NCBI GenBank assembly: GCA_050950765.1
Contig: JBMNIF010000002.1
Location: 416,001 to 480,000 of the forward strand
Direction of reading: 5' to 3'
Length of the DNA: 64,000 bases
DNA from: Bdellovibrionota bacterium
GTDB lineage: Bacteria > Bdellovibrionota_C > UBA2361 > JAAYZI01
Shown: positions 4,293 through 62,610 of the stretch, piece after piece
How positions within the stretch are numbered: position 1 is the stretch's first letter
How the letters are laid out: each line of letters opens with the position of its first letter
Notes under the pieces: model-generated
The model's input: the letters and a program-made list of their open reading frames with translations, nothing else
The model's database searches: none
What the model was told of the DNA's origin: nothing
Program-made: the position numbers and the translations under genes

Positions 4293-7200
4293 ATGACAGA
4301 AACAAAGGAAAAGAAACATAAAGAGAGTAAGCCTCGAAAAAAAACGGCATCTACTTCAGCCAAAACAAAGGAGGTCAACTCTGAAACTACCGCAAAGGTC
4401 GAACAGCCGTTAGCTGCAGAAAAAAAGAGCACCCGTAAAAAAGCAACATCCAGCGCTTCAAAAAAATCTCTCTCAAAAACAGTTACAAAATCAAGAGCCT
4501 CTCTTCCGAAGTTCAAGCTTAAAATAAAACCTATTAAAGCGTTGACTTCAAAAGAGCACCTCCCTTCTGAAGAGCTTTTAGCGATTAATAAAAGTAGAGA
4601 GGAGCGTGGTCACGCTTTGGCAGATCTACTTTTTGAATATGCCAATAAAAAAAGGATATTAGATTTAGACACCTATGTAGAAGCTATTCAAGAGGCAGTA
4701 CGTGGTAAACGATCGGAGGAGAATCAAGCTATCTTAAGAGCAGCCTGCGCATACTTTAAAGAAAAGTATACAAAGTGGTGTCGTGAAAGAGGTAACAGCG
4801 TTGAGCTATTAGATAATATCGTTCGCAGAACGGGGAAAGAGACAGAGCCTTTTTTAGCTAAGCTCTTACACGGGTTTGATGTAAAAGAGATGGCGAGAGA
4901 GCTCTGGGATCTGGATGTTCAAAAGAAAACAGCAGAGTTGCGAATTGCACGGCAACAGATATACGAGCTAACAAACGATCAAGTAACGGAGCTGCGCGAA
5001 GAGTACAACACCATTCCGAGTCAAGACCTTGCAACTGAAATTCATACAGCGCTTTACGCCACTAACCTAACGGGAGAAGCACAACCTGACGTCTCTGCCA
5101 TTAAGTACGCTTTGCGTGGCAGAACCTTAAATGAAGTAAAGCAGATCGAGTTTCAATTTAATGAAAAATATCATTTCGTGTATGACGACTCCAAAGAGCC
5201 TCCTCTGCGACAACAGTTGCGTGATAAATTATCTGAAAAAGATGCGCGCGAAATTGAAAAGCTTTTAAAAGGTTTTAGCTCAAGAGAGGTGGCAGAAAAC
5301 GTACACGATCTTTTAGTTCATTGTTCGGAAGCAAGTGAAGTTATCCAAACAAAGAAGAAAATTCATCCTGATTTTTCAGGTAATTTTAGACGTGATTATT
5401 CAGCAGCTCCTGTGATAGAGCGCGAGCTGCGTGCGAGAGAAGAGATCGATCACCTAATTGAATATCTTACTCCAGCACAATTTAAAAATGTAAATCGTCA
5501 ACTTGAACAACGATTTTCAGAAAAGCTTACAGAAGGGCTTTATTCTTGCAATCATCCTTTTGATCCGCGCAAAGTTGCTATCCAACTCTTTAGATCATTT
5601 CAAAACGTTCCACAACGTAGACAGTGTCGTAAAGATCAAGATTATCTGGCGTATTCTCAGGTTCTTGAAATTAAATCACGTTTCAGTACCAGCACACACA
5701 GTGAGATAACGGAGATTATAACTAAATGGGCAAATGAACAGAAAGCTTCTGAATCTTTTCAGATAATCAAACAAGCCCTACTTCCGATTCAAGATCTAGA
5801 TCCGACACAACTTTTTTATGTTAAAAAATGGTTCTACGTCTGCACCGGTTTAACGTTGCAAAAATACATTGAAGAGCGTGTTAATTTTCTTTGCAGAAAT
5901 GATGTTCCTAAATATGTTGCTATTATTTTAAAAAACAGACTTGCTGGAACTTCTCGTTTACCACTAAAAGCAGACCTCTTTGATCTTTTCTCTACGGCGG
6001 AGCAACGCCAACAAAACTATATAAACCTAGAGCCTCAAGCAAAATTGTTAGAACAAGCTAAAGCTGATGCTAGAGCCATAGATAAAATTCTCTCGGACAA
6101 ACAGGATGCGCGCAAATCAAAAGCTTTACTAGCTTTTCTTGAGAAACGGAACAGAGATCAGAGTAATGCTATGGAAAAAGCATTTTTAGAATTGTCTAAA
6201 GGCGTTCCCTTAATAGAGGCTATCAGAAGTAAAGTTAAGTCAAAAAAATCTCAAACGGCAGCTATTTTACTTTTATCTCAATTTCATGTTTGGGAAGAGG
6301 CGAAACGTATTGATAAAGATCCTGAGCATTTATTAACACTACTAGCGGAGCCACCACGTTCAGTTGCTTTTGTGCTGCAAGAGTATAGAGCAACATACAA
6401 GAAAAACTTATCAAGTATAATTAAAAGCAGTTATAAAGGTCAGGACTTACAGGAGAAACGGTTACTTTTAAATTCCGTTCTTTTTACTCCTAACGTTTTA
6501 AAGCTGCATAAGATCTTCAAAACAACGGAGCCACTTCCAGAGGAATCTCTTCATTTTTTAACTAGACAACTTTCCCGTCCGCGTTTGGATGTACTGGCGT
6601 TTGAGGCAGCTTACAACCGCTACTTCGCACGTTTTGAATATTGCCAAGATAAACTTTACGGATCACTTTTACAGCAGTTAAGGATCTTAGCAACAGAAGA
6701 GCTTATCCCACGTCAATCTTTTGCAAGTGCTGTTCTTCTATTAGAAGATGTTGATCCATCAATTCCAGTTACGATGCAAAATCACCTAAGTGAAAAAGAG
6801 ATCGGCGGCAATGCCATTATTAAGCTGCATCAACTGTTACGCGACTTTAAAGACCACTTAAAGATCTTACAGAAAGCCTATAACGCTTTAAACGAAAAAA
6901 ATACTCTTCGCGAAACGATCTATGATCTGAAGATACCGCTCGAGGTGAAAAACAAAACTTTACTTCTGCTAGACGGTTATGATCCTGATGCGGTCGCTAA
7001 AGAGATTATCACACTACTGAAAAAAGATTTATCAGCAGAGAAACTCGGGGCTGAGATCTGCGCCATCTTAGCAACATCAACACCTAAAGCTTTTAATCCA
7101 CGCATTCCGCTGCAAGCTAACTGGATTGATGAGATGTATCATCAGATCCGTGTTAGTTATGAAGCTCAAACAGGTAGTAGACTGATAGCAGACCTACTTC

Positions 7201-7541
7201 GCAGAAACGTTCCTATGAAGGGGGCAGGCATTAACGCTATTACATATAAGCTTTACGGTGAAGTTGCCAAAACTGTTATCAACATTCGACACCTCGTTAG
7301 CTTGCGCGGAACTGCTGCCGATAAGTTTGAAGTTACGGATAGAAAAATCGTGCAAACCTTAGCGGATCTTTTACCAGCTCTAAGGGAAAGAGCTATGAAT
7401 ATGTATGATGCCTATTATTCAGATGTAGGCGGAAGTCTCTCCCTACTGGCAGAGATAAAAACCTTCTCCAATAAACTCGTCCGCCAAAATGGAATAGAGC
7501 TGCTTGAGGAAGCGCTAGTCTGGGACACTCCTGAACAGTAA
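4293..7541 (+). CDS. Large protein with a Lys/Ser-rich N-terminus and multiple annexin-like helical repeats
   Basis: 1082-aa ORF; segments such as PDVSAIKYALRGRTLNEVKQIEFQFNEKY..LRQQLRDKLS and VLQEYRATYKKNLSSIIKSSYKG resemble annexin repeats. Confidence 0.6.
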   Translation: MTETKEKKHKESKPRKKTASTSAKTKEVNSETTAKVEQPLAAEKKSTRKKATSSASKKSLSKTVTKSRASLPKFKLKIKPIKALTSKEHLPSEELLAINKSREERGHALADLLFEYANKKRILDLDTYVEAIQEAVRGKRSEENQAILRAACAYFKEKYTKWCRERGNSVELLDNIVRRTGKETEPFLAKLLHGFDVKEMARELWDLDVQKKTAELRIARQQIYELTNDQVTELREEYNTIPSQDLATEIHTALYATNLTGEAQPDVSAIKYALRGRTLNEVKQIEFQFNEKYHFVYDDSKEPPLRQQLRDKLSEKDAREIEKLLKGFSSREVAENVHDLLVHCSEASEVIQTKKKIHPDFSGNFRRDYSAAPVIERELRAREEIDHLIEYLTPAQFKNVNRQLEQRFSEKLTEGLYSCNHPFDPRKVAIQLFRSFQNVPQRRQCRKDQDYLAYSQVLEIKSRFSTSTHSEITEIITKWANEQKASESFQIIKQALLPIQDLDPTQLFYVKKWFYVCTGLTLQKYIEERVNFLCRNDVPKYVAIILKNRLAGTSRLPLKADLFDLFSTAEQRQQNYINLEPQAKLLEQAKADARAIDKILSDKQDARKSKALLAFLEKRNRDQSNAMEKAFLELSKGVPLIEAIRSKVKSKKSQTAAILLLSQFHVWEEAKRIDKDPEHLLTLLAEPPRSVAFVLQEYRATYKKNLSSIIKSSYKGQDLQEKRLLLNSVLFTPNVLKLHKIFKTTEPLPEESLHFLTRQLSRPRLDVLAFEAAYNRYFARFEYCQDKLYGSLLQQLRILATEELIPRQSFASAVLLLEDVDPSIPVTMQNHLSEKEIGGNAIIKLHQLLRDFKDHLKILQKAYNALNEKNTLRETIYDLKIPLEVKNKTLLLLDGYDPDAVAKEIITLLKKDLSAEKLGAEICAILATSTPKAFNPRIPLQANWIDEMYHQIRVSYEAQTGSRLIADLLRRNVPMKGAGINAITYKLYGEVAKTVINIRHLVSLRGTAADKFEVTDRKIVQTLADLLPALRERAMNMYDAYYSDVGGSLSLLAEIKTFSNKLVRQNGIELLEEALVWDTPEQ

Positions 7542-7599
7542 ATTTTTTCCCCCCTCAAAAACACGCCTCCCGCACTAGCCGCCCGCTCTGCCAGAACCC

Positions 7600-8955
7600 G
7601 TCTTACTAAAGGGTGGCACCTTTTTAACCTCCGTCCAGATCTAGCTAATTCGCTTTGCAGTATCAGCCCGTTCTATCGTCCCTAGTGGGTGGCACCAGAT
7701 CTGCCAAATTCTAAGCTTTTACTAACATACTGATATTATTAGCTATCGTTATTTTAGAGTCTTTTAGCACTGGTGGGTGGCACCAAATTTTCGGCACTGT
7801 TACTGGTGGGTGGCACCAGATCTGCCAAATTCTAAGCTTTTACTAACATACTGATATTATTAGCTATCGTTATTTTAGAGTCTTTTAGCACTGGTGGGTG
7901 GCACCTTTTTAACCTTCGTCCAGATCTAACTAATTCATTTTTTAATATCAGCCCGCCCTACCGTCCCTGAAGGGTGGCACTTTTTTAACCTCCGTCCAGA
8001 TCTAGCTGACTCGCCCTGCAGTTGCAGCCCGTTCTAGCGCCCCTGAAAGGTGGCACCAGATCTGCCAAATTCTAAGCCTTTGCTAACATACTGATATTAT
8101 TAGCTATCGTTATTTTAGAGTCTTTTAGCACTGGTGGGTGGCACCTTTTTAACCTCCGTCCAGACCTAACCAACTTGTTCTGCAGTTGCAGCCCGCTCTA
8201 TCGCCCCTGAAGGGTGGCACCATTTTAACCTTCGTCCAGATCTAGCTAATTCATTTTTTAATATCAGCCCGTTCTGCGGTCATTAAAGGGTGGCACTAAA
8301 ACTAACCATTTTTAGTTAGGTGCTAACATATTGATTTTAAAGACTTCGTCCTTTTAAGCTAAGATTCTGCACTGGTGGGAGATTCTGCACTGGTGGGTGG
8401 CACCAGTTCTTAGCCCGTCTTAGTGGTGGGTGGCACCAAATTTTCGGCACTGTTACTGGTGGGTGGCACCAGTTTTTTACCACCCCGTCCTATCGTCCTT
8501 GAAGGGTGGCACCAGTTCTTAGCCCGTCTTAACTGGTGGGTGGCACCTTTTTAACCTCCGTCCAGATCTAGCTAATTCGCTTTGCAGTATCAGCCCGTTC
8601 TATCGCCCCTAGTGGGTGGCACCAGATCTGCCAAATTCTAAGCTTTTACTAACATACTGATATTATTAGCTATCGTTATTTTAGAGTCTTTTAGCACTGG
8701 TGGGTGGCACCTTTTTGACCCCCGTGAAAACCTAACTAACTTGTTTTTTAATATCAGCCCGTTCTACCGTCCCTAAAGGGTGGCACCATTTTAACCTCCG
8801 TCCAGATCTAGCTAATTCATTTTTTAATATCAGCCCGTCCAACCGTCCCTAGTGGGTGGCACCTTTTTAACCTCCGTCCAGACCTAACCAACTTGTTCTG
8901 CAGTTGCAGCCCGTCCAACCGTCCCTAGTGGGTGGCAGCAAATTTTTAACCTCCA
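7600..8955 (+). repeat. Modular mosaic repeat array with 20 GGGTGGCACC(-like) cores separating A (76 bp), B (88 bp) and C (33-43 bp) modules
   Basis: Cores start at 7611,7687,7775,7808,7896,7972,8048,8136,8212,8288,8395,8428,8461,8504,8538,8614,8702,8778,8854,8930. Confidence 0.95.
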
Positions 8956-9060
8956 CCATCACTAAAGTGCGATCTCTCAATTTAACAAAGCATTGAGAAA
9001 AAAAATCTATGTCGCTATAATTATTTCACGATTTTTAAAACTTATTAAGGTGTTAGGATT

Positions 9061-9633
9061 ATGTCAGATCAAGCAAAAGAAAATGTAGTCTATGGACCTG
9101 TTGATAACGGTATCCTTGGGGTTCAGTTTAAAATATTAAAAAGCCACTATGACGACAGAGGCTTTTTTCGTGAAGTAATCCGACACAACGACCCTGTCTT
9201 TTCAGAAGGACCTTTTGCCCAGTGGAGTCATAGCAGAATGCAAAAAAACGTCGTTAAGGCTTGGCACTACCATCATCAACAGATCGATTGGTGGTATGTT
9301 CCACTAGGTCAAGTTGAAGTTGTCCTTTTTGATTACAGAGAAGATAGCCCTACATACAGGACAAAGATGATCTTTCGCATGGGAGAAAGTGAAAAATACG
9401 GAGAAGACACCCATGAGATGTGCGTCAAAATCCCTTATCGAGTGCTACACGGTTGCCAAGTTCTAAGTGATGAGGCTCACCTCTTCTACATCACAAGTAA
9501 GACCTACAACCCACAAGATGAAGGCAGGTTGCCTTTTGATTCTGATGAAGTTCCTCATAACTGGGGCGCTGACGCTATCACTTGCGAACAAGATAGACGT
9601 TTAAATAAATTAACAACGCCTGTCTCTAAATAA
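9061..9633 (+). CDS. dTDP-4-dehydrorhamnose 3,5-epimerase (RmlC-like cupin) family protein
   Basis: DDRGFFREV, VKAWHYH, LFDYREDSPTY, HGCQVLSD motifs. Confidence 0.85.
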   Translation: MSDQAKENVVYGPVDNGILGVQFKILKSHYDDRGFFREVIRHNDPVFSEGPFAQWSHSRMQKNVVKAWHYHHQQIDWWYVPLGQVEVVLFDYREDSPTYRTKMIFRMGESEKYGEDTHEMCVKIPYRVLHGCQVLSDEAHLFYITSKTYNPQDEGRLPFDSDEVPHNWGADAITCEQDRRLNKLTTPVSK

Positions 9634-9801
9634 ATTAAGCTAACCCGATCTCACCTCTCTAAAGCTTTTTTCTTAAAAACTTTAGAGAGCGTTTTTAGTG
9701 CACTTACCCCTCACCTCGAGAAGCTCCTTGAAAAGCTACCTCTTCAGATACAAGGTGCACTTTATCTTTTATTATCTTTTATCTTTTTTTTATAAACTTT
9801 T

Positions 9802-10683
9802 TTATGAAACCACCCCTTTTTCAAGAGCTGCGATACGCGCCTCCATCGGTGGATGTGTACTAAAAAGCGCACAAAGACCTTTTGCATTACCTATGCCGCT
9901 TGCTGCCATCTCTTTCGGCAAAGCCCCCATATCGTCTCGCGAGAGAGCTTTTAAAGCATTGATCATATATTGATTATTACCCATCAATTTTCCTGCACCA
10001 GCATCAGCACGGAACTCACGTTGTCTTGAAAAATACATCACTACCATGCTCGCCAAGATTCCAAAGACAAGCTCAAACACTATTGAAGAGATATAATATC
10101 CGAAACCTGGTCCTTTAGAATCATTATCACTCTGCATAACCCGATCCAATCCCCACGCCACTACCCTTGAAAGGTACACAACAAAGGTGTTCACCACACC
10201 TTGAATCAAGGTCAAAGTTACCATATCACCGTTTGCAACGTGTGATATCTCATGCGCCAAAACAGCTTCAACCTCTTGTCTATTAAGGCTCTGCATCAAC
10301 CCTGAAGAGACAGCAACTAACGAACTTGACTTAGTGGCTCCCGTAGCGAAAGCGTTCGGTGCCCCTTCATAAACTGCCACCTCCGGCATGGGTAATCCAG
10401 CACGAGAGGCTAGTTTCCCTACTGTTTCCATTAACCAGATCTCTTCTTCAGTACGTGGCTGTTTGATAACTTTTGCGCCCGTATAAATTTTAGCCATCGT
10501 CTTTGAAAGTAGTAGCGAAATTATAGATCCGCTAAATCCGACTACTGCACAAAAGATCAGCAATGCCCCATAATCGATACCAGCATCTACTAAATAATAA
10601 TTAGCTCCCGTCAAACTCAAGATGATAGAGAACACCAACATAATGGCGATGTTTGTTATAAGAAAAAGAAAAACTCGTTTCAT
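9802..10683 (-). CDS. htpX: Zinc metalloprotease HtpX
   Basis: PNAFATG, AHEISHVANGDMVTLTLIQG, FSRQREFRAD, STHPP. Confidence 0.97.
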   Translation of the reverse strand: MKRVFLFLITNIAIMLVFSIILSLTGANYYLVDAGIDYGALLIFCAVVGFSGSIISLLLSKTMAKIYTGAKVIKQPRTEEEIWLMETVGKLASRAGLPMPEVAVYEGAPNAFATGATKSSSLVAVSSGLMQSLNRQEVEAVLAHEISHVANGDMVTLTLIQGVVNTFVVYLSRVVAWGLDRVMQSDNDSKGPGFGYYISSIVFELVFGILASMVVMYFSRQREFRADAGAGKLMGNNQYMINALKALSRDDMGALPKEMAASGIGNAKGLCALFSTHPPMEARIAALEKGVVS

Positions 10684-11042
10684 CTAATTTATCTCCAACA
10701 CAAAAAAGCTGCGTTCCTTAACGCGCTGTACCTTATATACCATACCTATATAACCACCATTTAATAATATTTAAATCTTTTAAAAAGAAAAAGTATCCCG
10801 ATAAACGGTTTTTATTCAGTTGTAGCAACAAAAAAAGGTGGGTAGAATATCTTATCTTATACCTTCAGAGGAGCGCCGACAAAAAAAGGACAACCAAAAA
10901 GAGCGTATTCAGTTCTCTTTTCGATTGCCCTCACTCGCAGAAAGGATGGTGTCATGCCTAATGTATAAGAATATCGCCCGAATGGAGTTTTATATTAGTT
11001 TTTAGCGCACTTTTTTATAATATTTTTCTCTAAAGCTAAGTT

Positions 11043-12524
11043 ATGAGTATTATTAAGTTAATAAACATCAAAAGAGCTCTATTACTTCTCTCCGTTATTC
11101 TATTTTTTAATCTACCCTCTTTTGCGCAAAGCCTTACAGAGGAAGGAAGCGTTCTAAAATGTGATGCCACACCATATATAACTTTAGGCGAAGCAAATAC
11201 ACAGTCTCGCGCTAATAATCATGAAACCGCTTACGAACTTTATAAGAAGTTACTTACAGACCCAGAGACCTTTAAACGCATCGCTTCAGAAAATGAAAGA
11301 GGTCGGATAATGAGGGAAGCTTTTCGAGGTGCCTCTGAAAGTGTCAGCAATTTTAAAAAATTCTACTACGGTGGCTACGGAAGTGAGCTTGACGATTTTC
11401 TTACTGAGGTTACAGCACCTAGCACAACAGATTGGCGCATCTTACACACCGCAGGTCTGTTCTATATTGGCGGTGCTTTTCATCCTAAGGCACCCCTTGA
11501 GTTTCCTCCTAACGCTTCTAGCGGCGGCTGCCTTATCTCAGGAAAATTTTTTCGTGAATATCTTCATAATTACTATAATAACGACTCTTTTCAAAAAAGA
11601 TCTCCTCGTCTACCACACCTTGAAACTTACATTTTAAGAATGGCACAACTCAAGAACGTTACTAAATGTCTAAAAAAGGGGCGGCGTGTTTCTTCACCAC
11701 AGCGAGATCGAGTTTTAGGTTTGCAATTATTACTACGTGCTGCACGTTCAATCCCATATAAAACTAAAAGTAAGGAAGTTTGTAACTTCTATCTAGATAT
11801 CGCCGATACACTAGCAGATCAATTAATTAGTTATAGGGATCCTTTTTACTTTTCTAATAGTGTAATGAGAGGTGAGTTTTATTCTGGGAAAAATCTTACA
11901 GATCTGGAAACATTACCTGCCTATATAGATCTTTATTTTCATTCTTTAGATAGACGTCATTATGATACTTCTCTTTTCCCTCGACCACCAAGCTCTCTTC
12001 CATACCCTCGATTGGAGGTGCGATTTCGTCCTGATCCGTTATTTCCATTCTTATTACCAGATCCTCTCCCTACAAAGCCGGAAGATGTTTATTATGAACT
12101 AAGAGAAAGTTTTGAAAAAGCAAAAAACGATGGTGAAAGGTGGCGCTGGGCGTTACAACAAGTTGTAGAGCACGCTCCATCCAGAGAAGTAACAGAGTGG
12201 CAAAGTAAAACAGACTTAAGGCAAGCTGACTTTTTAGCATATAAGCTTCAAATACAACATTCCGACCTTAACAATCTTCCTAAAGAGTTAGCTTCTGATA
12301 TGCCCTCTTTAAAAGACTCCGAAACCATCGCCAAGTTTGCCACAGGAATAAAGAAAGTTACCCTTCCTGACAAGGTAAACTTTATTAAGATCTATAAAAA
12401 AATTATTGAAAGAGGCGACAGTATGAGCTACGTAGCTAGAGATTCCCTATGCCAAATTTATCGAATAAGACAGCAGCCAGAAAAGATAAAAATTTACTGT
12501 CCATCTCATTTCCAACCTTCTTGA
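11043..12524 (+). CDS. Secreted protein resembling the N-terminal region of large bacterial alpha-2-macroglobulin-type proteins
   Basis: Signal peptide; RDRVLGLQLL, NDGERWRWAL and ETIAKFATGIKKVTLPDKVNFIKIY motifs recalled from planctomycete-type MG2/A2M proteins. Confidence 0.5.
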   Translation: MSIIKLINIKRALLLLSVILFFNLPSFAQSLTEEGSVLKCDATPYITLGEANTQSRANNHETAYELYKKLLTDPETFKRIASENERGRIMREAFRGASESVSNFKKFYYGGYGSELDDFLTEVTAPSTTDWRILHTAGLFYIGGAFHPKAPLEFPPNASSGGCLISGKFFREYLHNYYNNDSFQKRSPRLPHLETYILRMAQLKNVTKCLKKGRRVSSPQRDRVLGLQLLLRAARSIPYKTKSKEVCNFYLDIADTLADQLISYRDPFYFSNSVMRGEFYSGKNLTDLETLPAYIDLYFHSLDRRHYDTSLFPRPPSSLPYPRLEVRFRPDPLFPFLLPDPLPTKPEDVYYELRESFEKAKNDGERWRWALQQVVEHAPSREVTEWQSKTDLRQADFLAYKLQIQHSDLNNLPKELASDMPSLKDSETIAKFATGIKKVTLPDKVNFIKIYKKIIERGDSMSYVARDSLCQIYRIRQQPEKIKIYCPSHFQPS

Positions 12525-12535
12525 AGTTTTTAGTT

Positions 12536-12685
12536 TAAGAAGAAGTTTTTTTAAAGCATTTGGAATGTCATCCACTAGGGACAATTGGACGGGTGGATAG
12601 TGAAGTAAAGAACTAGCTAGATCTGGACGGAGGTAAAAAAACCGCTAAAGGACGGTTGGACGGGGTGAAAGTACAGAACGAGTCC
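12536..12685 (-). repeat. Degenerate inverted A modules of the GGGTGGCACC family plus a 26-bp element shared with 44528
   Basis: gaactagctagatctggacggaggtaaaaaa is the reverse complement of the A module. Confidence 0.8.
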
Positions 12686-12820
12686 CTATCTCTTCTCCTT
12701 TTAAAAGGGAGTGAAAAAATATAAAACTTGCTTAAAGTAGGAACCGTAAGCGGCACTTTCTTAAAAGCTCTCTTTAGGAAAGAAAAAGTGGTGCGCGCTT
12801 ACGTTATCTGCAATCTATTT

Positions 12821-18889: not shown

Positions 18890-19070
18890 GATCCCTCCAC
18901 CCTTTAGGGGTAGCAGAACGGGCTGCATCTGCAAAACAGAACTAGCTAGATCTGTACGGAGGTGAACCTGCTGCACCCATTAGGGACACCTGAACGGGCT
19001 GATACTGAAAGGCGAATCGGTTAGGTTTCTACGGAGGTCAAAAATTTGGTGCCACCCACCAGTGCAGAGA
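18890..19070 (-). repeat. Two inverted A modules plus a core (ggtgccaccc at 19048-19057)
   Basis: Reverse-complement match to the A module and the core. Confidence 0.85.
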
Positions 19071-22779: not shown

Positions 22780-23073
22780 GCCACCCTTTAAGGACAATAA
22801 AGCGGGCTGTAACTGAAAAGCGAATCGGCTAGATCTCTACGAAGGTAAAAACCCTTTAAGGATAATTAAGACGGGCTGATACTAAAAAATAAATTAGCTA
22901 GATCTCTACGAAGGTAAAAAACCTTTAATGACGATAAAGCGGGCTGTAACTAAAAAGCGAATTAGCTAGATCTTCACGGAGGTTAAAAACCCTCTAAGGA
23001 CGGTAGGACGGGCTGATACTAAAAAATAAATTAGCTAGATCTTTACGAAGGTAAAAAATGTCACCCACCAGTG
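22780..23073 (-). repeat. Four tandem inverted A modules (~69 bp) with internal cores deleted
   Basis: cgggctg..gctagatct..acgRaggt(t)aaaaa repeated four times; gccaccc and tgtcacccaccagtg core remnants at the ends. Confidence 0.88.
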
Positions 23074-26072: not shown

Positions 26073-27134
26073 ATGGTGTCGAATCATTATCAAAAAGGAC
26101 AAAGTGTAATAGCTACAATGCTTGTGCTTTTAACTCTTGCTCTCGTCGGCGTTGCCGCCATTGTAGGGCTTCAACTTTTTTCTGATCTATACAGACGTAG
26201 CGCTTACGCCGCCCTTGAAAAGAGTTTGAAATCAAGAGATTTAACTACTGTTAAAAACGCTCTTAACACAGTAGCAACTGAACCGCAGATCTTCCGCTTT
26301 TTTTTGAGGGAGAGCTCTTACGACACTTTAAAACAAGCGAGTTCATATTCAGAAGATGAGGGTATCTTATCTGAACTTTTTGAACTCTACACCCTTACTT
26401 CACCACACACCTCTCCGACCTACACCACCTTAAAACGTTTTAAAAATTTGCCTGAATCAGATTCTCTAAAAACACTACTTCAAGAGAGAACTCCTCCACC
26501 AAACGCCTTATCCCCACTCTCTACTTTAACAAAAAAGCTCTCTACTACTATTATCCCTATTTCAGAGGCACCCGCAGCGGTAGAGCTCGATGTTTTTGAG
26601 AGCGTTTTTAGCAGGTACCTCCACGTGATGCGTCAATTGCAACGAAAGGCAAGCGAAACGCCGTTACAGATTAACGCTAACAAAACTCACCTCTCACAAC
26701 TAAAAACTTTCCTTTTAGATCTACGGACGGATTTTGCAGATTTCTTATCCCTCTCTCAAAGTAGAACTGCTCGTAAAAAGAATACGGCGAAATCGCAAGA
26801 GTTATCTTTTTACACAAGCGGGATCTTTAAAGATCTGCCGCAACTACCAACTCTTCCAGATAATATTGAAACGGCGAAAGATCTAAGCAACCTCCTGCAA
26901 AAGCTGGGTGGCGAGGTTGCGCTTTACGGAAAGGACGCACCTCAAATTTTTGAAGATAAAATTTCAACTTTTCGTAAAGCTGCCGTAATCTATCGAGAAA
27001 AGATACAAAACTTACAGGAAGAAAATAAACGGTTGGAGGCAGAACTAGAAACCATCACAAAAGAAGCCGAACTAAGCGCTAAGGAGGTGCATTACCTTAT
27101 AAAAAAGACCTTACTTTACGTTACAAGAGTCTAA
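26073..27134 (+). CDS. Hypothetical membrane-anchored protein with a C-terminal coiled coil
   Basis: N-terminal TM segment, 353-aa ORF. Confidence 0.65.
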   Translation: MVSNHYQKGQSVIATMLVLLTLALVGVAAIVGLQLFSDLYRRSAYAALEKSLKSRDLTTVKNALNTVATEPQIFRFFLRESSYDTLKQASSYSEDEGILSELFELYTLTSPHTSPTYTTLKRFKNLPESDSLKTLLQERTPPPNALSPLSTLTKKLSTTIIPISEAPAAVELDVFESVFSRYLHVMRQLQRKASETPLQINANKTHLSQLKTFLLDLRTDFADFLSLSQSRTARKKNTAKSQELSFYTSGIFKDLPQLPTLPDNIETAKDLSNLLQKLGGEVALYGKDAPQIFEDKISTFRKAAVIYREKIQNLQEENKRLEAELETITKEAELSAKEVHYLIKKTLLYVTRV

Positions 27135-33169: not shown

Positions 33170-33967
33170 GGTGCCACCCTTCAGCAGACCCCCCCCCCCT
33201 TTAAAGTGGGTGGCACCAGTTTTTTAACCCCCGTGTAGCCGATCCGTTTTCCCGTTGCAGCCCGTTCAATCGTCCCTAACGGGTGGCACCATTTTAACCT
33301 CCGTCCAGATCTAGCTAATTCTGTCTTTAATATCAGCCCGCTCGATCGTCCCTAAAGGGTGGCACTTTTTACCTCCGTAGAAACCTAGCCGATCCGTTTT
33401 CCCATTGCAGCCCGCTCAATCGTCCCTAACGGGTGGCACCAAATTTTTGACCAGTCGCTAAGCCGTCAAAGCGACAAAAAAGAAGGGTGGCACCAGAGCC
33501 TAACCAACCCAAAAACGACAAAAATGAACGACAAAAATGAAGGGTGGCACCAAAACTGCCAAATTCTAAGCTTTTGCTAATATATTGATATTATTAGATG
33601 TTATAATTTTAGAGTCTTTTAGCACTAGTGGGTGGCACCAAATTTTTAACCCCCACCTTAAGCTGAAGGGTGGCACCAAATTTTTAACCTCCGTCCAGAT
33701 CTAGCTAATTCTGTCTTCAGTATCAGCCCGTTCTCCCGTTTCAGCCCGTTCAATCGTCCCTAAAGGGTGGCACCAAAACTGCCAAATTCTAAGCTTTTGC
33801 TAATATCTTGATATTATTAGATGTTATAATTTTAGAGTCTTTTAGCACTAGTGGGTGGCACCAAATTTTTAACCCCCACCTTAAGCTGAAGGGTGGCACC
33901 AGTTTTTTAACCTCCGTGCAGATCTAGCTAGTTCGCTCTTTAGTATCAGCCCGTCCGATCGTCCTTA
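33170..33967 (+). repeat. Second modular GGGTGGCACC array: one inverted core and 11 direct cores
   Basis: Inverted core at 33170; direct cores at 33208,33281,33357,33431,33485,33542,33630,33668,33765,33853,33891; A and B modules shared with the 7.6-8.9 kb array. Confidence 0.95.
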
Positions 33968-34567
33968 GCGGATAACGCTATGTTCATCTTCCTTAACAAA
34001 AACCTTCAGATCTAAAACACGGTCTCCTACCCTTAGCCTTTCCGCTACACCTATGCCCTTTACGACCTGCCCGAATACAACATACTGCCCATCCATATGC
34101 GGAGCTCTACCGAGAATAATTCTAAACTGACTGCCGTGAGACCTTCTGGAGTGATCAAAATCAAGGTCGTTAGGCTTTCGCACCATTGAAAGCGCACCTA
34201 AGTCATGCTTACGATTATTAAATTCCGCTGGAAGGGTATAACCTGGACCAGAATTAGCCTTCACTCCTGAAGCACCTGTTTGAATCGCTAAATTGGGCAC
34301 GTATTTATGAAACTTTAAATTTTTGTAAAAACCTTTATCCGCTAGATACTTAAGATTTGCCACGTGCCAAGGCGCCTCCTCCGGATAAAGCCTAAAATAG
34401 ACCTCCCCCTTCTCTGTATAAAGGATGGCACTACGAATCTTTAACAACTCCTGTTTGGGCGGTAAAGAAAAAGGTGGGGTATCAAGTGCAAATAATGGCA
34501 CACAATTAAGGAGTAAGAACATCAAAACTATTAACGCGAAGTATTTGTTGTGGCGAGTCGTCTGCAT
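33965..34567 (-). CDS. Cyclophilin-type peptidyl-prolyl isomerase
   Basis: APWHVANL..LADKGFYKNLKFH, GPGYTLPAEF, GALSM, GSQF, HMDGQYVVFGQV. Confidence 0.9.
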   Translation of the reverse strand: MQTTRHNKYFALIVLMFLLLNCVPLFALDTPPFSLPPKQELLKIRSAILYTEKGEVYFRLYPEEAPWHVANLKYLADKGFYKNLKFHKYVPNLAIQTGASGVKANSGPGYTLPAEFNNRKHDLGALSMVRKPNDLDFDHSRRSHGSQFRIILGRAPHMDGQYVVFGQVVKGIGVAERLRVGDRVLDLKVFVKEDEHSVIR

Positions 34568-37584: not shown

Positions 37585-37589
37585 ACAAC

Positions 37590-37673
37590 AAATTTTTTAC
37601 CTCCGTTAAGATCTAGCTGATTCGTTTTGCAGTTGCAGCCCGTTCAGTTGTCCCTGAAGGGTGGCACCAAATT
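37590..37673 (+). repeat. Single A module plus core (37659-37668) upstream of the TA operon
   Basis: acctccgttaagatctagctgattcg..cagcccgttcagttgtccctgaagggtggcacc. Confidence 0.88.
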
Positions 37674-37714: not shown

Positions 37715-38047
37715 ATGGATTTTAAAGTTAGAGAGATCGTTGTTTTAGTTGATGATAATGGCAAATGTCCATATAGAGAATGGAGAAATAACATTCGAGA
37801 TACATCATTAGGTGCAGCAATCGATGCTAGATTAGCTAGAGTTAGGAACGGAAACTTTGGAGATCATAAATCAGTTGGTGCTGGTGTGTATGAACTTAGA
37901 ATCCCAAAAGGATCTGGTCTTAGAATTTATTACGCATTAGAAGGTGATGTTATTGTAGTATTACTTGCTGGTGGTGATAAAAAAAGTCAAAGCAAAGATA
38001 TTATCCTAGCAAAAAAACTTTGGGAGGATTATCAGAATGAAACTTGA
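37715..38047 (+). CDS. Type II toxin, RelE/ParE-family addiction module killer protein
   Basis: GNFGDHKSVGAGVYELRI..G.GLRIYY..LLAGGDKKSQSKDI..AK. Confidence 0.92.
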   Translation: MDFKVREIVVLVDDNGKCPYREWRNNIRDTSLGAAIDARLARVRNGNFGDHKSVGAGVYELRIPKGSGLRIYYALEGDVIVVLLAGGDKKSQSKDIILAKKLWEDYQNET

Positions 38048-38327
38048 AAGTTATGAGAATGAAATTAAAGAAAGACTAAAAGATCCTGACTATGCCGTTG
38101 AATATCTAACAGATGTGTTAGCTAATGAATCACAAGAAACGTTCTTAATTGCATTAAAAGATGTAATTGATGCAAGGGGTGTTCAGATATCAAAACTATC
38201 TGAAGAATCTGGTGTCACACGCCAAGCCCTATATCACTTACTTTCAGATAAAGGTAATCCAACATTGACAACTTTTGTCTCTATTCTTAAAAGCTTGGGG
38301 TTTACTTTACAGATTAAAGCAGCTTAA
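38037..38327 (+). CDS. Addiction module antidote protein (HTH antitoxin)
   Basis: YL..L..FLIALKDVIDARG..ESGVTRQALYHLLSDKGNPTLTT..ILKSLG; overlaps the toxin stop. Confidence 0.92.
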   Translation: MKLESYENEIKERLKDPDYAVEYLTDVLANESQETFLIALKDVIDARGVQISKLSEESGVTRQALYHLLSDKGNPTLTTFVSILKSLGFTLQIKAA

Positions 38328-38332
38328 CGTTG

Positions 38333-39267
38333 TAAGTATTTACAAAAAGATCCCACACTACTAAAGGGCAGCATCAAATTTTTAATCACCAAGCCCTATA
38401 TCACTTACTTTCGGATAAAGGTAATCCAACATTGACCTGTTGCAGATCTGCCCTTCCGTGACGACTGCACGGGCTGAAACTGAAAAAAAGATCAGTCAGA
38501 TTTCTACGGAGGTTAAAAATTTGTGTCTGTTCTTAAAAGTTTGGGGTTCACTTTACAGATTAAAGCAGCTTAACGTTGTCCGCTCTTACTGTTGGGTAGC
38601 ACCAAATTTTTAACCACTAAGCCCTATATCACTTACTTTCGGATAAAGGTAATCCAACATTGACCTGTTGCAGATCTGCCCTTCCGTGACGGCTGGAGGG
38701 GCTGAAACTGAAAAACGGAACAGTCAGATTTCTACGGAGGTTAAAAATTTGTGTCTGTTCTTAAAAGCTTGGGGTTTACTTTACAGATCAAAGCAGCTTA
38801 ACGTTGTCCGCTCTTACTGTTGGGTAGCACCAAATTTTTAACCCCAAAATGAAACTTGAAAGTTATGAGAATAAAATTAAAGAAAGACTAAAAGATCCTG
38901 ACTATGCCGTTGAATATCTAACAGATGTGTTAGCTAATGAATCACAAGAAACGTTCTTAATTGCATTAAAAGATGTAATTGATGCAAGGGGTGTTCAGAT
39001 ATCAAAACTATCTGAAGAATCTGGTGTCACACGCCAAGCCCTATATCACTTACTTTCGGATAAAAGTAATCCAACATTAACCTGTTGCAGATCTGCCCTT
39101 CCGTGACGGTTGCACGGGCTGAAACTGAAAAACGGATCGGCTAGATTTCTACGGAGGTTAAAAATTTGTGTCTGTTCTTAAAAGCTTGGGGTTCACTTTA
39201 CAGATCAAAGCAGCTTAACGTTATAAGTATTTACAAAAAGATCCCACACTACTAAAGGGCAGCATCA
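38333..39267. repeat. Mosaic of duplicated antitoxin fragments carrying inserted inverted A modules, bounded by a 44-bp direct repeat that includes the uup 3' end
   Basis: taagtatttacaaaaagatcccacactactaaagggcagcatca at 38333-38376 and 39224-39267; gggtagcacc junctions at 38594 and 38822. Confidence 0.88.
38849..39218 (+). pseudogene. Second antitoxin copy interrupted near its 3' end by an ~80-bp A-module insertion
   Basis: Near-identical to 38037..38327 up to NPTLT, then CCRSALP*; the remainder (ttcttaaaagcttgggg..gcagcttaa) resumes after the insert. Confidence 0.85.
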
Positions 39268-49588: not shown

Positions 49589-50746
49589 TTATTTTTCTGA
49601 TCTTTCAAGATTAAGTTCTACCCAAATCAAAGCGTGATCGGAGGCGTTCTCAGGATAATAAACCAGACCACTTTTAAAGTTGCCCTTTTTACCTTTTTTC
49701 TCCAAAGCGTATTTCAAAGATTCCTTTGGTAAAAGGATATCATCCAGCCAGTAATATTTTTTTCGATACCTTAATGTGCCACTCAAAGCAGCTTCCTTCG
49801 GATCGTTTATTAAAACACTATATAGACTCCGCTCTGCTTTAGCCTTTTCTTTACAAAGTGGCATACCTTTTTTTGTAACAACACAAGCGCCGCCACGTTT
49901 AAAATCTTTAAGTGTTAATTTACCCTCTAAGATCTTAGCAGCAGCCGTGTCATAATTCCCATTCCTATCCCCAAGCAAGACCAAGATCACCTCTCCTGAT
50001 CTTACGAGCTCACCGTACTTAACCTTAACGATCTGACGCAACGCCTCTGCCATCTCCATACGCGCCGTTTCAAACTCAAGTCCCGCCGGATCACTTCCCC
50101 ATCTACTACTACGCGATTTAAAATGAATATTCTCTAGCACCAAAATCTTTTGCTGCTGTCGTCCGACCCTTAACTGCACCTCAAAAGGCCCCCTTGAAAA
50201 GCGACGCTGCTTCTGACCTGCAGAAAGTTTTGGCAATTCCGTTTTGTAATAAGAGTTAGTTTTAATTATCTGCGCACTATCCGACGCTACTAAATAACCG
50301 GATCTTAAATTAGGATCATTACTATCACCGACTAACGCTTTAAAGTGTCGTCCCGTCTCTAAGCTCAACAATTTCGCTAACCTTTCAAGAGCACGTTGCC
50401 CCTCTCTTTTTGAAGGTGCCAGCACCTCTTGCACAGCAATAATATCACAGTGCGCCGCCACAAAACGGTTGATTAAAGCACGCTCTTTTAACTCTAAACC
50501 ACTCTGCGTCATTTTTTTTGAACGCTTTTTTACATTAAAGAGAGCTCCGTAGTTTTCAAGGTTTTGACTACAAACTACGATCTGATCTTGTCCCAACCAA
50601 GTTGTTTGTTGCGGTTTTTTTCGTGAAGTTAAAAAAGCTTCTTCATTTAAAAGTAGAGCAACAACAAGTAGGATAAAAGCAACGATAAGAAGTATGAAGA
50701 TAAGAGATCTAACCTTGCGTTTTCGTATTTCGGTATCTTTACTCAC
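49589..50746 (-). CDS. Membrane-anchored endonuclease/exonuclease/phosphatase-family protein
   Basis: SQNLENY, DIIAVQEV, NIHFKS, LLGDRN, LDDIL, SDHALI. Confidence 0.85.
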   Translation of the reverse strand: MSKDTEIRKRKVRSLIFILLIVAFILLVVALLLNEEAFLTSRKKPQQTTWLGQDQIVVCSQNLENYGALFNVKKRSKKMTQSGLELKERALINRFVAAHCDIIAVQEVLAPSKREGQRALERLAKLLSLETGRHFKALVGDSNDPNLRSGYLVASDSAQIIKTNSYYKTELPKLSAGQKQRRFSRGPFEVQLRVGRQQQKILVLENIHFKSRSSRWGSDPAGLEFETARMEMAEALRQIVKVKYGELVRSGEVILVLLGDRNGNYDTAAAKILEGKLTLKDFKRGGACVVTKKGMPLCKEKAKAERSLYSVLINDPKEAALSGTLRYRKKYYWLDDILLPKESLKYALEKKGKKGNFKSGLVYYPENASDHALIWVELNLERSEK

Positions 50747-60558: not shown

Positions 60559-62610
60559 CTATAAAAAAGACTCCGCCTTTAGATATATGTCAGGGTTCTT
60601 CTTTTTTATAGCGTTACCTTCACTACTAAAAACTAATACAAACCCTACAAAGATACTCAATAGACACAGCCCATAAGAGGTTCTTCTAAAGATAGTGCGA
60701 CCCACCTTCCCTATCTGCGGCGTTTCAGAAACTCTTGTAAGGCTAAGAATAGTTAAAGAAGAGAGTAACGCCAAAGAAAGTGCAAGGTCTGAAACATACC
60801 TTAGGTGCACTCCTCCCAAACAGAAATCAACAAAAGCTATAAACACAAGACTTAATAATACACTTAAAAATGTGATCTTTTTTAAATTGTTTTTATTAAA
60901 GGTGTAACCACATACAAAGATTGCTAGGTTAATCGGAAACCACAGCGCCCCCATTGAATAATACCGATAGATATAACTCCCTGTTTTCAAGCCCCAATCA
61001 TGAGATGGCATAAGATAAGGAAACGTTGTTGAAAAGTTGGGAATTTGTAAAAAATATGTAAATAGACTTTTTAAGAAAAGATCGGCACGAATAGTAAAAT
61101 ACGAAACATCCGACACCGTTAATTGATAGATCTGACCGAACTGAAAAACCGAATCAAACCTAACATAATTGTAATACATCACAAAAAGACCACCTAATGA
61201 AAGGGGAAGTACAAACGAGATAAACTCTAAAAGCCTCTTTGAAAGCTTCCTCTCTTTCTGCAACAGATTGGTGATAATTATCGGCATAATAAAGGAAAAA
61301 GCTATAAATAAGAGGTGGGGTCTACTCATAGCAACTAATACACACGAGATAGCAGCAAGTATTAACGAAAGTATGCGCAAAGGAAACCTCTTCGTATTAT
61401 AGGCAAAAAAGGTAAACGCTACTGTTCCTGCCAGAAACGTTATGGAGCTAAGCACGGGAAGATAATAAAAAGTTTGAATGCTTTCTGCCGTATAAAGTAA
61501 GCTACTAAAAACTGTCGCAATAGAAACACTTAGTAGCATACATAAACTAGCATTTTTACAAAAAGTGATCGTAAGTTCATGTAAGGCAAAAAAGATAAAA
61601 AAGATCCCAAAAAACGTTAAAATCGCCACCGCCACACCATCACTTGGAACAGTTTTGCTAAAAAAATAGACTGGATAATGCACCGTTAGAAGGGGTGCTA
61701 TCCCGAAATAAGAATAGAAGTGCCCTTTATAATAAGCTAAATCCCAAGGATAAGTAGCCTGCTTTAAATCTCTTTCACTTTTATCATACGGGTTGTTTAA
61801 GATCTTCAACTTCGGATCAACAGGACGGTCTATATGAAATTGTCCCTTTAAAAAAGCATCAAACTGCTGAACATAACAGGAATAACTGGATACGGGCTTC
61901 GCCAAAGGATACTTTATAAAATCTTCAGCACCTTGCGAACGCGCTGCAAAAAACACCCCTACGGAGATTAAGAGACAAAAAAGTAATCCACCAAGTAAAG
62001 TTATATTTGAAGAGATACTATGCGGATCAAATTTAATATCGCTATATTTTACACAGCAAAAGATAAAACACCCCAAGCAGAATAACAGCAAGGTTCTCAG
62101 ATATGAAAAAGAGAAGCCATCTGATCCATTCAAAATAATACTTTTTACAACAAGTGGTGAAAATTCGTTATTATTAAACTTAAACCTCACCGCCTTCGCC
62201 TTGCCGAAACTCCGTACAACAGCGGTTACTTTATTATACCCTTTTTTACTAGCGGGATTGTAATTAAACCTTGTAACAAAATTATAGACCTCACTAAAAG
62301 CGGCATCTTTTAACTCTATTACACCTGTATTGTATTGCTCTGCTCCTGAAAGAGAGACCTCTACCCTATTTATAGGCAGATCAAGTGCTCTAAACTCTAT
62401 AACCGATTCTCCGTAAGGAAGTACCACACCTCCCTCCTCATTAAAGAAAAGTTTTTTTTCAGAGATACCTTGACGCAGATCTAATGAAACAGTTTTAAAT
62501 GATGGATCATGACTTAAAAAAGAGGCATTAAAGATAAAAAGCTCCGCAACGACTGCCATCAGAAAGATTACAGACAGAACTAGCCCTCTTTTTTTAAAAA
62601 ACGTTATCAT
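60559..62610 (-). CDS. Polytopic membrane protein, possibly a GT-C-type glycosyltransferase
   Basis: More than 10 TM segments; NPYD..R, WDLAYYKG.FYSYFG, SRP, YNYVRFDS.FQFG..YQLT, RYVSD motifs. Confidence 0.7.
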   Translation of the reverse strand: MITFFKKRGLVLSVIFLMAVVAELFIFNASFLSHDPSFKTVSLDLRQGISEKKLFFNEEGGVVLPYGESVIEFRALDLPINRVEVSLSGAEQYNTGVIELKDAAFSEVYNFVTRFNYNPASKKGYNKVTAVVRSFGKAKAVRFKFNNNEFSPLVVKSIILNGSDGFSFSYLRTLLLFCLGCFIFCCVKYSDIKFDPHSISSNITLLGGLLFCLLISVGVFFAARSQGAEDFIKYPLAKPVSSYSCYVQQFDAFLKGQFHIDRPVDPKLKILNNPYDKSERDLKQATYPWDLAYYKGHFYSYFGIAPLLTVHYPVYFFSKTVPSDGVAVAILTFFGIFFIFFALHELTITFCKNASLCMLLSVSIATVFSSLLYTAESIQTFYYLPVLSSITFLAGTVAFTFFAYNTKRFPLRILSLILAAISCVLVAMSRPHLLFIAFSFIMPIIITNLLQKERKLSKRLLEFISFVLPLSLGGLFVMYYNYVRFDSVFQFGQIYQLTVSDVSYFTIRADLFLKSLFTYFLQIPNFSTTFPYLMPSHDWGLKTGSYIYRYYSMGALWFPINLAIFVCGYTFNKNNLKKITFLSVLLSLVFIAFVDFCLGGVHLRYVSDLALSLALLSSLTILSLTRVSETPQIGKVGRTIFRRTSYGLCLLSIFVGFVLVFSSEGNAIKKKNPDIYLKAESFL

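Follow-up and report, generated by a model that had tools for sequence, protein, structure and literature searches.

Mosaic arrays of short modules in a Bdellovibrionota genome are probably the amplified ends of a TIRtron-like Y1 HUH element

What builds a long mosaic of short, repeated, non-coding modules between two bacterial genes? The question is raised by an array in the 64,000-nucleotide stretch of a Bdellovibrionota genome analysed here (hereafter the window). The array (Table 1) is flanked on one side by a 1082-aa ORF that matches nothing in Pfam and on the other by a gene for a dTDP-sugar epimerase. It contains 20 same-strand GGTGGCA cores at 7612-8931, with spacings of 76, 88, 33, 88, 76, 76, 88, 76, 76, 107, 33, 33, 43, 34, 76, 88, 76, 76 and 76, exactly as listed in an earlier reading of the letters alone (the sequence-only reading). 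Sixteen of the 20 cores were exact copies of GGGTGGCACC. Exact copies in the window as a whole numbered 29, where 100 shuffles gave an expectation of 0.01. The A modules of the array comprised eight family members and one outlier. Module order, which had been described as shuffled, was indeed aperiodic but was partly built by block duplication. The palindrome GGTG-G-CACC that had been noticed in the core cannot fold, because its loop is only 1 nt; the hairpin that folds is GGTG-GGTGG-CACC (4-bp stem), which is possible in only 228 of the 967 exact cores of the genome.

Table 1. Repeat features of the window, in window positions. Nick positions are predicted from duplication scars elsewhere, in the source genome and in the relative G019.
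Feature	Position	Strand	Remarks
Array of 19 modules between 20 cores	7587..8955	+	repeat-derived sequence also precedes the first core (about 24 nt) and follows the last (15 nt)
First core	7611..7621	+	predicted nick after 8th base, between 7618 and 7619
Other core starts	7687, 7775, 7808, 7896, 7972, 8048, 8136, 8212, 8288, 8395	+	predicted nick after 8th base
Other core starts, continued	8428, 8461, 8504, 8538, 8614, 8702, 8778, 8854, 8930	+	predicted nick after 8th base
A module, 76 bp	7611..7686	+	family of 194 modules in 77 arrays
B module, 88 bp	7687..7774; also 7808, 8048, 8614	+	family of 40 modules in 23 arrays
Near-match to IHF consensus in B (one mismatch)	7723..7735; also 7844, 8084, 8650	-	presumed consensus
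Perfect match to IHF consensus	8324-8336		inside the 107-bp module; presumed consensus
18-nt tandem duplication	8362..8397	+	truncated core at the end of the first copy; scar of the upstream-arm class
A+B block duplication	8538..8711	+	99% identical to 7611-7784
One exact core, two A modules, degenerate cores	18925..19070	-	exact core at 19048-19057
Tandem A modules, cores deleted after GGG	22780..23000	-	similar at about 12570-12690
Second array, one inverted core then 11 direct cores	33170..33980	+	same module families
Single A module and core	37588..37668	+	module starts at CA, no upstream core
Modules ending in variant cores, with copied host DNA and an inverted A module	38274..39267	+	

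The arrays are real: short non-coding modules are joined by an 11-base motif, which is also the end motif of a Y1 HUH transposase encoded elsewhere in this genome. When 31-mers were sampled from window 4300-10700, of which the array makes up about a fifth, 0.93-0.94 of them were present in each of five runs from five studies, one of which may be the source sample. In four runs mapped on another array-rich region, unique contigs entered the arrays at the same places. Given these shared words and shared entry points, an assembly artefact is unlikely for the window array as far as tested. The runs containing the words of the region came from bioreactors and digesters, and RNA runs contained 0.06-0.13 of these words.

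The same modules had been reported to recur at about 12.6, 18.9, 22.8, 33.2-33.9, 37.6 and 38.4-39.2 kb. Modules were found at these places (38.3-39.3 kb for the last), but the A modules at 12.6 and 22.8 kb were coreless and the cores at 38-39 kb were variant forms. The host DNA copied into the modules of the 38-39 kb locus was taken piecemeal from the antitoxin gene (38037-38327); of two copied pieces, only one started at CCA. The region 37715-39267 carries genes for a RelE/Gp49-like toxin and an HI1420-like antitoxin, with a near-whole antitoxin copy at 38849-39106 that was cut short by the inverted A module. Elsewhere in the window, long ORFs without a Pfam match lay at 4293-7541, 11043-12524, 26073-27134, 49589-50746 and 60559-62610, and the Rfam matches were two tRNAs and nothing else.

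Across the source genome (2.64 Mb in 5 contigs, 94% complete) the exact core occurred 967 times, against 2 for a reversed-pattern control; the next highest exact count among 40 relatives was 51. Scans for orthologous arrays in other strains, by motif in metagenome contigs and by a single protein in genome contigs, each gave 0. A permissive search gave 1090 sites and 103 same-strand runs of three or more, amounting to 67 kb or 2.5% of the genome. The conserved stretch of the core was GGGTGGCACCA, with a variable 4-mer in front. Only 25 of the 1090 cores lay within ORFs, though ORFs cover 79% of the genome, and adjacent inverted pairs numbered 23. Between the cores we counted 908 short modules in 117 arrays, most clusters being singletons. 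The arrays had been placed mostly after stop codons, and at least one facing gene end was present in 91 of the 103 arrays scored genome-wide. The gene 3′ of the core strand was on the opposite strand in 76 of these 103, and between co-oriented genes the core opposed the genes 37 to 15. A replication-strand bias of the arrays was not clear (58 vs 45). A CRISPR array was rejected, as the core is 11 bp and the spacers are repeated and 21-300 bp long, whereas CRISPR repeats measure 24-48 bp and their spacers are unique and regular.

The sequence-only reading had proposed a non-autonomous family served by a trans-acting enzyme, with no transposase in the window. A Pfam scan of 45 proteins from 61 ORFs found none there, and a search of the genome recovered six genes matching PF01797, all outside the window and each bracketed by the core. 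The proposal was thus supported by the position of these Y1 HUH genes between cores, and by a scar, described below, that places a breakpoint inside the core. The six genes encode 322 aa and are 98-99.6% identical. Each starts 158-159 nt after a core and ends 218 nt before one, in a unit of 1345-1346 bp between two direct cores. Besides the extra direct core, all six copies have an inverted core about 204 nt upstream of the gene, 45-46 nt beyond the unit, from which an array runs outward. The six units differ at 6-28 nt, and the variable codons of the genes were synonymous in 15 cases and nonsynonymous in 3; the copies are intact and under purifying selection. When ORFs were screened for a core within 400 nt of each end, 29 qualified, these six genes among them. 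Right-end fragments of the element (414, 249, 152 and 80 nt) all end at a core and sit in arrays.

The catalytic motifs are NHFH at residues 60-63, W100 and YIYINP at 121-126, and H61, H63, W100, Y121, N125 and P126 were invariant in 41 homologs. The predicted model (pLDDT 92) had as its best structural match the E. coli RAYT 4ER8 (Foldseek E 9.6e-7; VIA-align Z 13.3, rmsd 2.8, 154 residues aligned), a match that covers mainly residues 8-228. A Pfam search at E 0.05 found only Y1_Tnp, with no match in the C-terminal part to the HTH or DnaA_C-like domain described for TnpA-Y1 subclass 2.1. The score against NCBIfam REP_Tyr_transpos was 67 bits, below its cut-off of 80.

Homologs of about 30% identity were present in 37 of the 41 genomes of the order that were searched. 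Thirty homolog loci were taken, 5 were dropped for short flanks, and in 14 of the 25 scored the inverted match between flanks exceeded the 95th percentile of 100 mismatched pairs. Their end motifs differ internally and mostly end in CCA or a near variant. Loci L021 and L036 use the core of the source genome. The enzyme tree does not unite L009, L021 and L036, all of which have this core, though its resolution is poor and L009 sits on a long branch. As to co-evolution of enzyme and motif, some sister pairs in this tree share end motifs. The closest homolog among the relatives, L034 (G010:C15), is 50% identical over residues 2-106 and appears split, with an upstream motif one base off the core.

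Sequencing depth over the transposase was about 3-6 times that of unique DNA in four runs. When four runs were mapped on the transposase locus C2:1174500-1193500, no empty site, circle or order variant was found, the strains being almost identical to the assembly; the joints seen in reads there were short-sided repeat artefacts. At L039:11951-13248 the transposase reached about 3 times unique depth in run X3 and about 5 times in X2 and X5, which hints weakly at a difference in copy number between strains.

The position at which a core is cut may be read from small duplications. Near 943 cores we found 46 exact tandem duplications of 8-40 nt. The first copy started in or after the core in 33, and the start interval included GGGTGGCA^CCA in 23 of these (21 distinct units). 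Among the 22 duplications without microhomology, 16 started exactly at GGGTGGCA^CCA. Recurrences at the ^CCA offset numbered 29, against at most 9 at any other offset, and up to 3000 randomly placed windows of 40 nt gave a background of 8 events. Scars occurred at 6 of 221 hairpin cores, 19 of 518 GAAG cores and 4 of 204 others, and the core hairpin is dispensable. A 248-nt block duplication shares the same left edge. The window array itself contained no exact ^CCA scar.

The scar recurred in a genome of another family, G019, where it was found at 12 of 50 cores, with at most 3 at other offsets. This genome has 51 cores, which lack a stem, are mostly single or in divergent pairs and have A-rich DNA upstream. 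No Y1 gene was detected in G019 by protein or Pfam match (the genome is 92% complete and several cores lie at contig ends), nor were transposase fragments found in 24 stretches of it. Scar-like duplications were also seen beside the motifs of the homologs, which were picked by eye and are uncontrolled.

Since the left edge of the scar is fixed and its 3′ edge variable, the nick would fall on the core strand, as cutting of the opposite strand would instead have fixed the right edge of upstream copies. We take the scar to suggest both the cut site of an enzyme and the mode by which arrays grow. Another class of duplication involves the upstream arm: here the second copy starts 12-15 nt before the core and the first ends variably within it. 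Such duplications, including the one in the window array, are not accounted for by a single nick. Where longer stretches of upstream DNA have been copied, the joint often lies between a few and about 20 nt beyond the predicted cut; the antitoxin pieces at 38-39 kb are examples. A model of target duplication plus insertion gained no support: the heads of next and previous modules were symmetric (223 vs 220 of 688), and a narrower comparison is confounded by plain block duplications.

We suggest that the arrays are probably the amplified ends of a TIRtron-like element, grown by Y1 nicking, extension of the 3′-OH and rejoining at the core. The 322-aa enzyme would recognise the core in trans and nick the core strand at GGGTGGCA^CCA. 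Its tyrosine would remain on the 5′ end of CCA while host enzymes extend or trim the free 3′-OH, and that 3′ end would then be joined again to a tyrosine-bound 5′ end. If this took place at the same core after 8-30 nt, the short scar would be left; if at an earlier core, or after upstream copying, a module or block would be duplicated or nearby DNA made into a new module. The many similar copies would then undergo ordinary recombination and slippage, which would homogenise the arrays and produce the patchworks seen in A modules. Occasional long-range moves would spread module families, and the whole element would move along with part of its left array. In the available text of the sources, the tyrosine of HUH enzymes stays on the 5′ end and the free 3′-OH can prime synthesis or attack the bond to that tyrosine (PMC8266576), and nicking, extension and rejoining have been proposed for the growth of E. 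coli BIMEs (Ton-Hoang et al. 2012, PMC3333891). The sequence itself shows the build of the repeats, the linkage of gene and core, an intact catalytic motif and fold, the fixed left edge of the scar and the local homogenisation of arrays. That the Y1 protein is the cutter, which strand it cuts, that extension and rejoining follow and that the system is active at present are points that we infer from the genome. Several results count against this reading: G019 has cores and scars but no Y1 match, the mapped reads gave no empty site, circle or order variant, the enzyme tree does not unite the homologs with this core, and the upstream-arm duplications do not follow from one nick. In addition, CCA was not enriched at internal module joints (5/261, p 0.48) or, in a second count, at the starts of donor pieces (1/65), the version with target duplication plus insertion gained no support, and the window array has no exact ^CCA scar.

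Compatible with this origin, the arrays could persist mainly through use by the host, for instance as IHF-bent nucleoid anchors or as transcription insulators at gene ends, which we consider rather unlikely. Matches to what we take to be the IHF consensus numbered 120 on the strand opposite the core, where 6.9 were expected, and 4 on the core strand; 107 of 118 lay at offset 35-36. In 121 distinct B heads chosen solely by their flanks, eight of the nine consensus positions were 95-100% kept, while the four free ones were 70-93% kept. Genes resembling IHF alpha and beta are present, with scores below the curated cut-offs, and the prevalence of arrays pointing at an opposite-strand gene (76/103) would also fit. 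However, the B heads derive from one ancestor, and the counts of sites are therefore not independent; the site also overlaps a weak hairpin. As a feature of the whole family it was rejected, since it was not enriched beside homologs in 32 loci and was absent from the one transposase unit scanned. Moreover, the 40 sampled relatives live without these modules, weak matches to those of the window being found in only 3. Because of the shared ancestry of the B heads and the lack of enrichment at homolog loci, the predicted IHF-like site at a fixed offset in B modules is a lead only.

It is also conceivable, but unlikely, that the enzyme only seeded the cores long ago and that slippage and homologous recombination have since grown the arrays with no enzyme step at the core. 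Homogenisation was strongly local, as this would predict: 104 of 162 A modules had their nearest relative in their own array, where 3.3 would be expected, and the best match was within the same array for 22 of 34 and 20 of 28 modules of the next two largest families. Whole blocks have been duplicated, and the A modules (mean identity 75%) form a patchwork of 28 variable two-state sites, in which 374 of the 378 site pairs passed the four-gamete test and r2 dropped with distance, a signature of recombination. The G019 genome, with no detectable Y1 gene, also fits. Against it, 16 microhomology-free duplications start at one base and the preference was replicated in G019, whereas slippage would depend on microhomology and favour no particular base; the transposase copies, moreover, are intact and under purifying selection. 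No conserved structure was found in the A modules by alifold or covariation. A profile search gave 487 A copies genome-wide, of which 141 had no core on either side.

The sequence-only reading had modules added or shuffled at the core. Free movement of modules between arrays as cassettes was unsupported, and integron-like traffic, in which modules would be cut out as single-stranded circles and inserted again at any core as the main route of array change, is distinctly improbable. Consistent with such traffic are the direct orientation of the cores, the spread of the A family over 77 arrays and of B over 23, some modules that start at (C)CA straight after unique DNA, and circle excision as part of the BIME model in the available text of PMC3333891. 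Yet array growth was mostly local: among 663 distinct modules with a length of at least 45 nt only 11 occurred identically in two arrays, and few blocks of at least 130 nt were shared between arrays once transposase and IS copies were set aside. Array ends usually fell inside modules. The enrichment at array-start junctions (C in 25 of 49, A in 22 of 49) was modest and is confounded by an internal look-alike motif.

That a different enzyme cuts the core (an IS110/Piv recombinase, like that of dRS3 in Neisseria, an Ssn-type GIY-YIG nuclease, an IS91-type Y2 enzyme or a host nuclease), with the Y1 genes as passengers, is very improbable: two other IS types do lie inside arrays, and in G019 cores occur although no Y1 gene was detected, but the source genome had no match to the IS110 families PF02371 and PF01548 (controls matched in 6 of 14 genomes), its only GIY-YIG match lay within a 634-aa frame with no small Ssn-type gene in the 94% complete assembly, a Y2_Tnp search was uninformative, matching neither this genome nor any control, and Y1 homologs elsewhere have their own motifs with similar, though uncontrolled, scars.

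Set against known systems, as these are described in the available text of the cited papers, the arrays and the Y1 gene appear to be a variant of TIRtron- or BIME-type systems. The gene and its ends fit the TIRtron/TIRYT of Di Nocera et al. 2013 (PMC3733652), without GGGGWSAS or a detected HTH tail. As in TIRtrons, a Y1 HUH gene lies between inverted short repeats that are not REPs, the motifs NH[YF]H, Y---NP and SS are present, and the end repeats occur elsewhere as singles, dimers and clusters. Quentin et al. 2018 (PMC6006769) link TIRYTs to TnpA-Y1 subclass 2.1, and TIRYTs are also equated with Group 1 of the RAYTs in Bertels et al. 2017 (PMC5581495). The protein had the class 2 features (HuH, the conserved W, Y---NP and the RAYT fold) and three of those published for subclass 2.1, namely NHFH, S142-S143 and an H61-Y121 distance of 60, where near 60 is expected. 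Subclass 2.3 was rejected: there is no 55-aa insertion and the HuH-Y distance is 60 rather than about 110, although the length of 322 is near that subclass median of 325 (PMC6006769). Unlike most TIRs, the core is GGGTGGCACCA and not GGGGWSAS, though unrelated TIRs are allowed for (PMC3733652), and about 1000 repeat copies are present here, whereas the reported TIR families have moderate numbers or none. Six near-identical genes, arrays of shared modules and a cut position readable from the genome also set the element apart from described TIRtrons. In the text available, Quentin et al. (PMC6006769) give no REP-like sequences for subclasses 2.1 and 2.3, Bertels et al. (PMC5581495) report Group 1 flanking 16-mers at about 12 copies, and the groups that RAREFAN gives as associated with repeats are Groups 2 and 3 only.

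The parallel with REP/BIME/REPIN mosaics drawn by the sequence-only reading holds in that a mosaic is tied to a Y1 HUH enzyme. These are not canonical REPs or REPINs, however, since there is no GTAG-footed hairpin, the hairpin is not needed and the cores are direct. REP, REPIN or BIME membership with a Group 2 or 3 RAYT was rejected on the absence of a stem-loop with a GT[AG]G foot, the rarity of inverted pairing (23/1090) and the six copies of a gene that should be single-copy, or else divergent and not duplicating; the high copy number and extragenic position (25/1090 cores in ORFs) do agree. The system may work like BIMEs and TnpA-REP, but it falls outside the REPs on hairpin, orientation and gene copy number. 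Like E. coli BIME-2 and atypical BIMEs (Ton-Hoang et al. 2012, PMC3333891; Corneloup et al. 2021, PMC8266576), the arrays lie between genes and combine one fixed motif with a small number of linker types in a mosaic. Tandem BIME copies are likewise alike within a locus, a nick-prime-rejoin proposal exists for them, and one linker class has an IHF site; the predicted site in B modules parallels this linker of BIME-1 (PMC3333891). Unlike BIMEs, with C|T cleavage sites at variable distance, inverted motifs and GTAG-footed hairpins, the present cores are direct, lack that hairpin and have one fixed predicted cut inside the motif. The TnpA-REP of BIMEs is single and domesticated, whereas the Y1 gene is multi-copy and apparently mobile.

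In architecture and scale, the closest match is the neisserial NIME arrays, which are also long and intergenic, with a short core between more than 100 families of 20-200 bp modules (Bentley et al. 2007, PMC1797815). Their core dRS3, in contrast, is a 20-bp palindrome, and their enzymes, a phage recombinase and SsnA (PMC1797815, PMC11893778), belong to families not found here. The IS200/IS605 elements IS608 and ISDra2 share the HUH Y1 fold and near-identical copies within a genome. Unlike them, the protein is twice as long, with class 2 Y---NP, the ends are inverted and replication-strand bias is not clear.

A wider reading, possible but offered tentatively, is that this TIRYT-like clade would be a site-specific nick-rejoin recombinase with a hairpin-free target of 10-11 bases, probably in dsDNA, where IHF-bent B modules pair the cores. 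Such an enzyme would build and reshuffle arrays and copy host DNA next to them, as at the antitoxin gene, and across the order its targets would vary while the cut before CC is conserved. If true, this would be a distinct mode of HUH transposition, neither peel-and-paste nor REP-hairpin, and would offer a family of small tools for site-specific DNA ligation. The amplification of REP/BIME-type arrays in living cells is still a model. For the TIRYT, subclass 2.1 or Group 1 branch, the available text reports no mapped cut site and describes it as without abundant repeats. With a member that appears active by its sequence, about 1000 cognate sites and a nick predicted to the base, the source genome makes the nick-prime-rejoin model testable. 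It also provides NIME-like mosaic arrays outside Neisseria together with a candidate builder. We found no literature on the motif, the clade or the scar; subscription papers and supplements (Fig. 9 and the alignment of Di Nocera et al., the additional files of Quentin et al.) could list related motifs.

Some further repeats were observed. The two other IS types inside arrays are present in two copies each, one at C2:811965 and C2:1182217 (478 aa) and the other at C2:37927 and C2:896861 (548 aa), and one of the two types was at about 3-fold depth. Module families 6, 9, 20 and 30 share a sub-module with a second core-like motif on the opposite strand (GGGTGTCC); it is joined to many heads and starts mostly at CCA or CA. 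Tandem arrays of the homolog's own end motif were found upstream of the homolog in L012, L038, L031 and L011, with at least 21 copies in L038.
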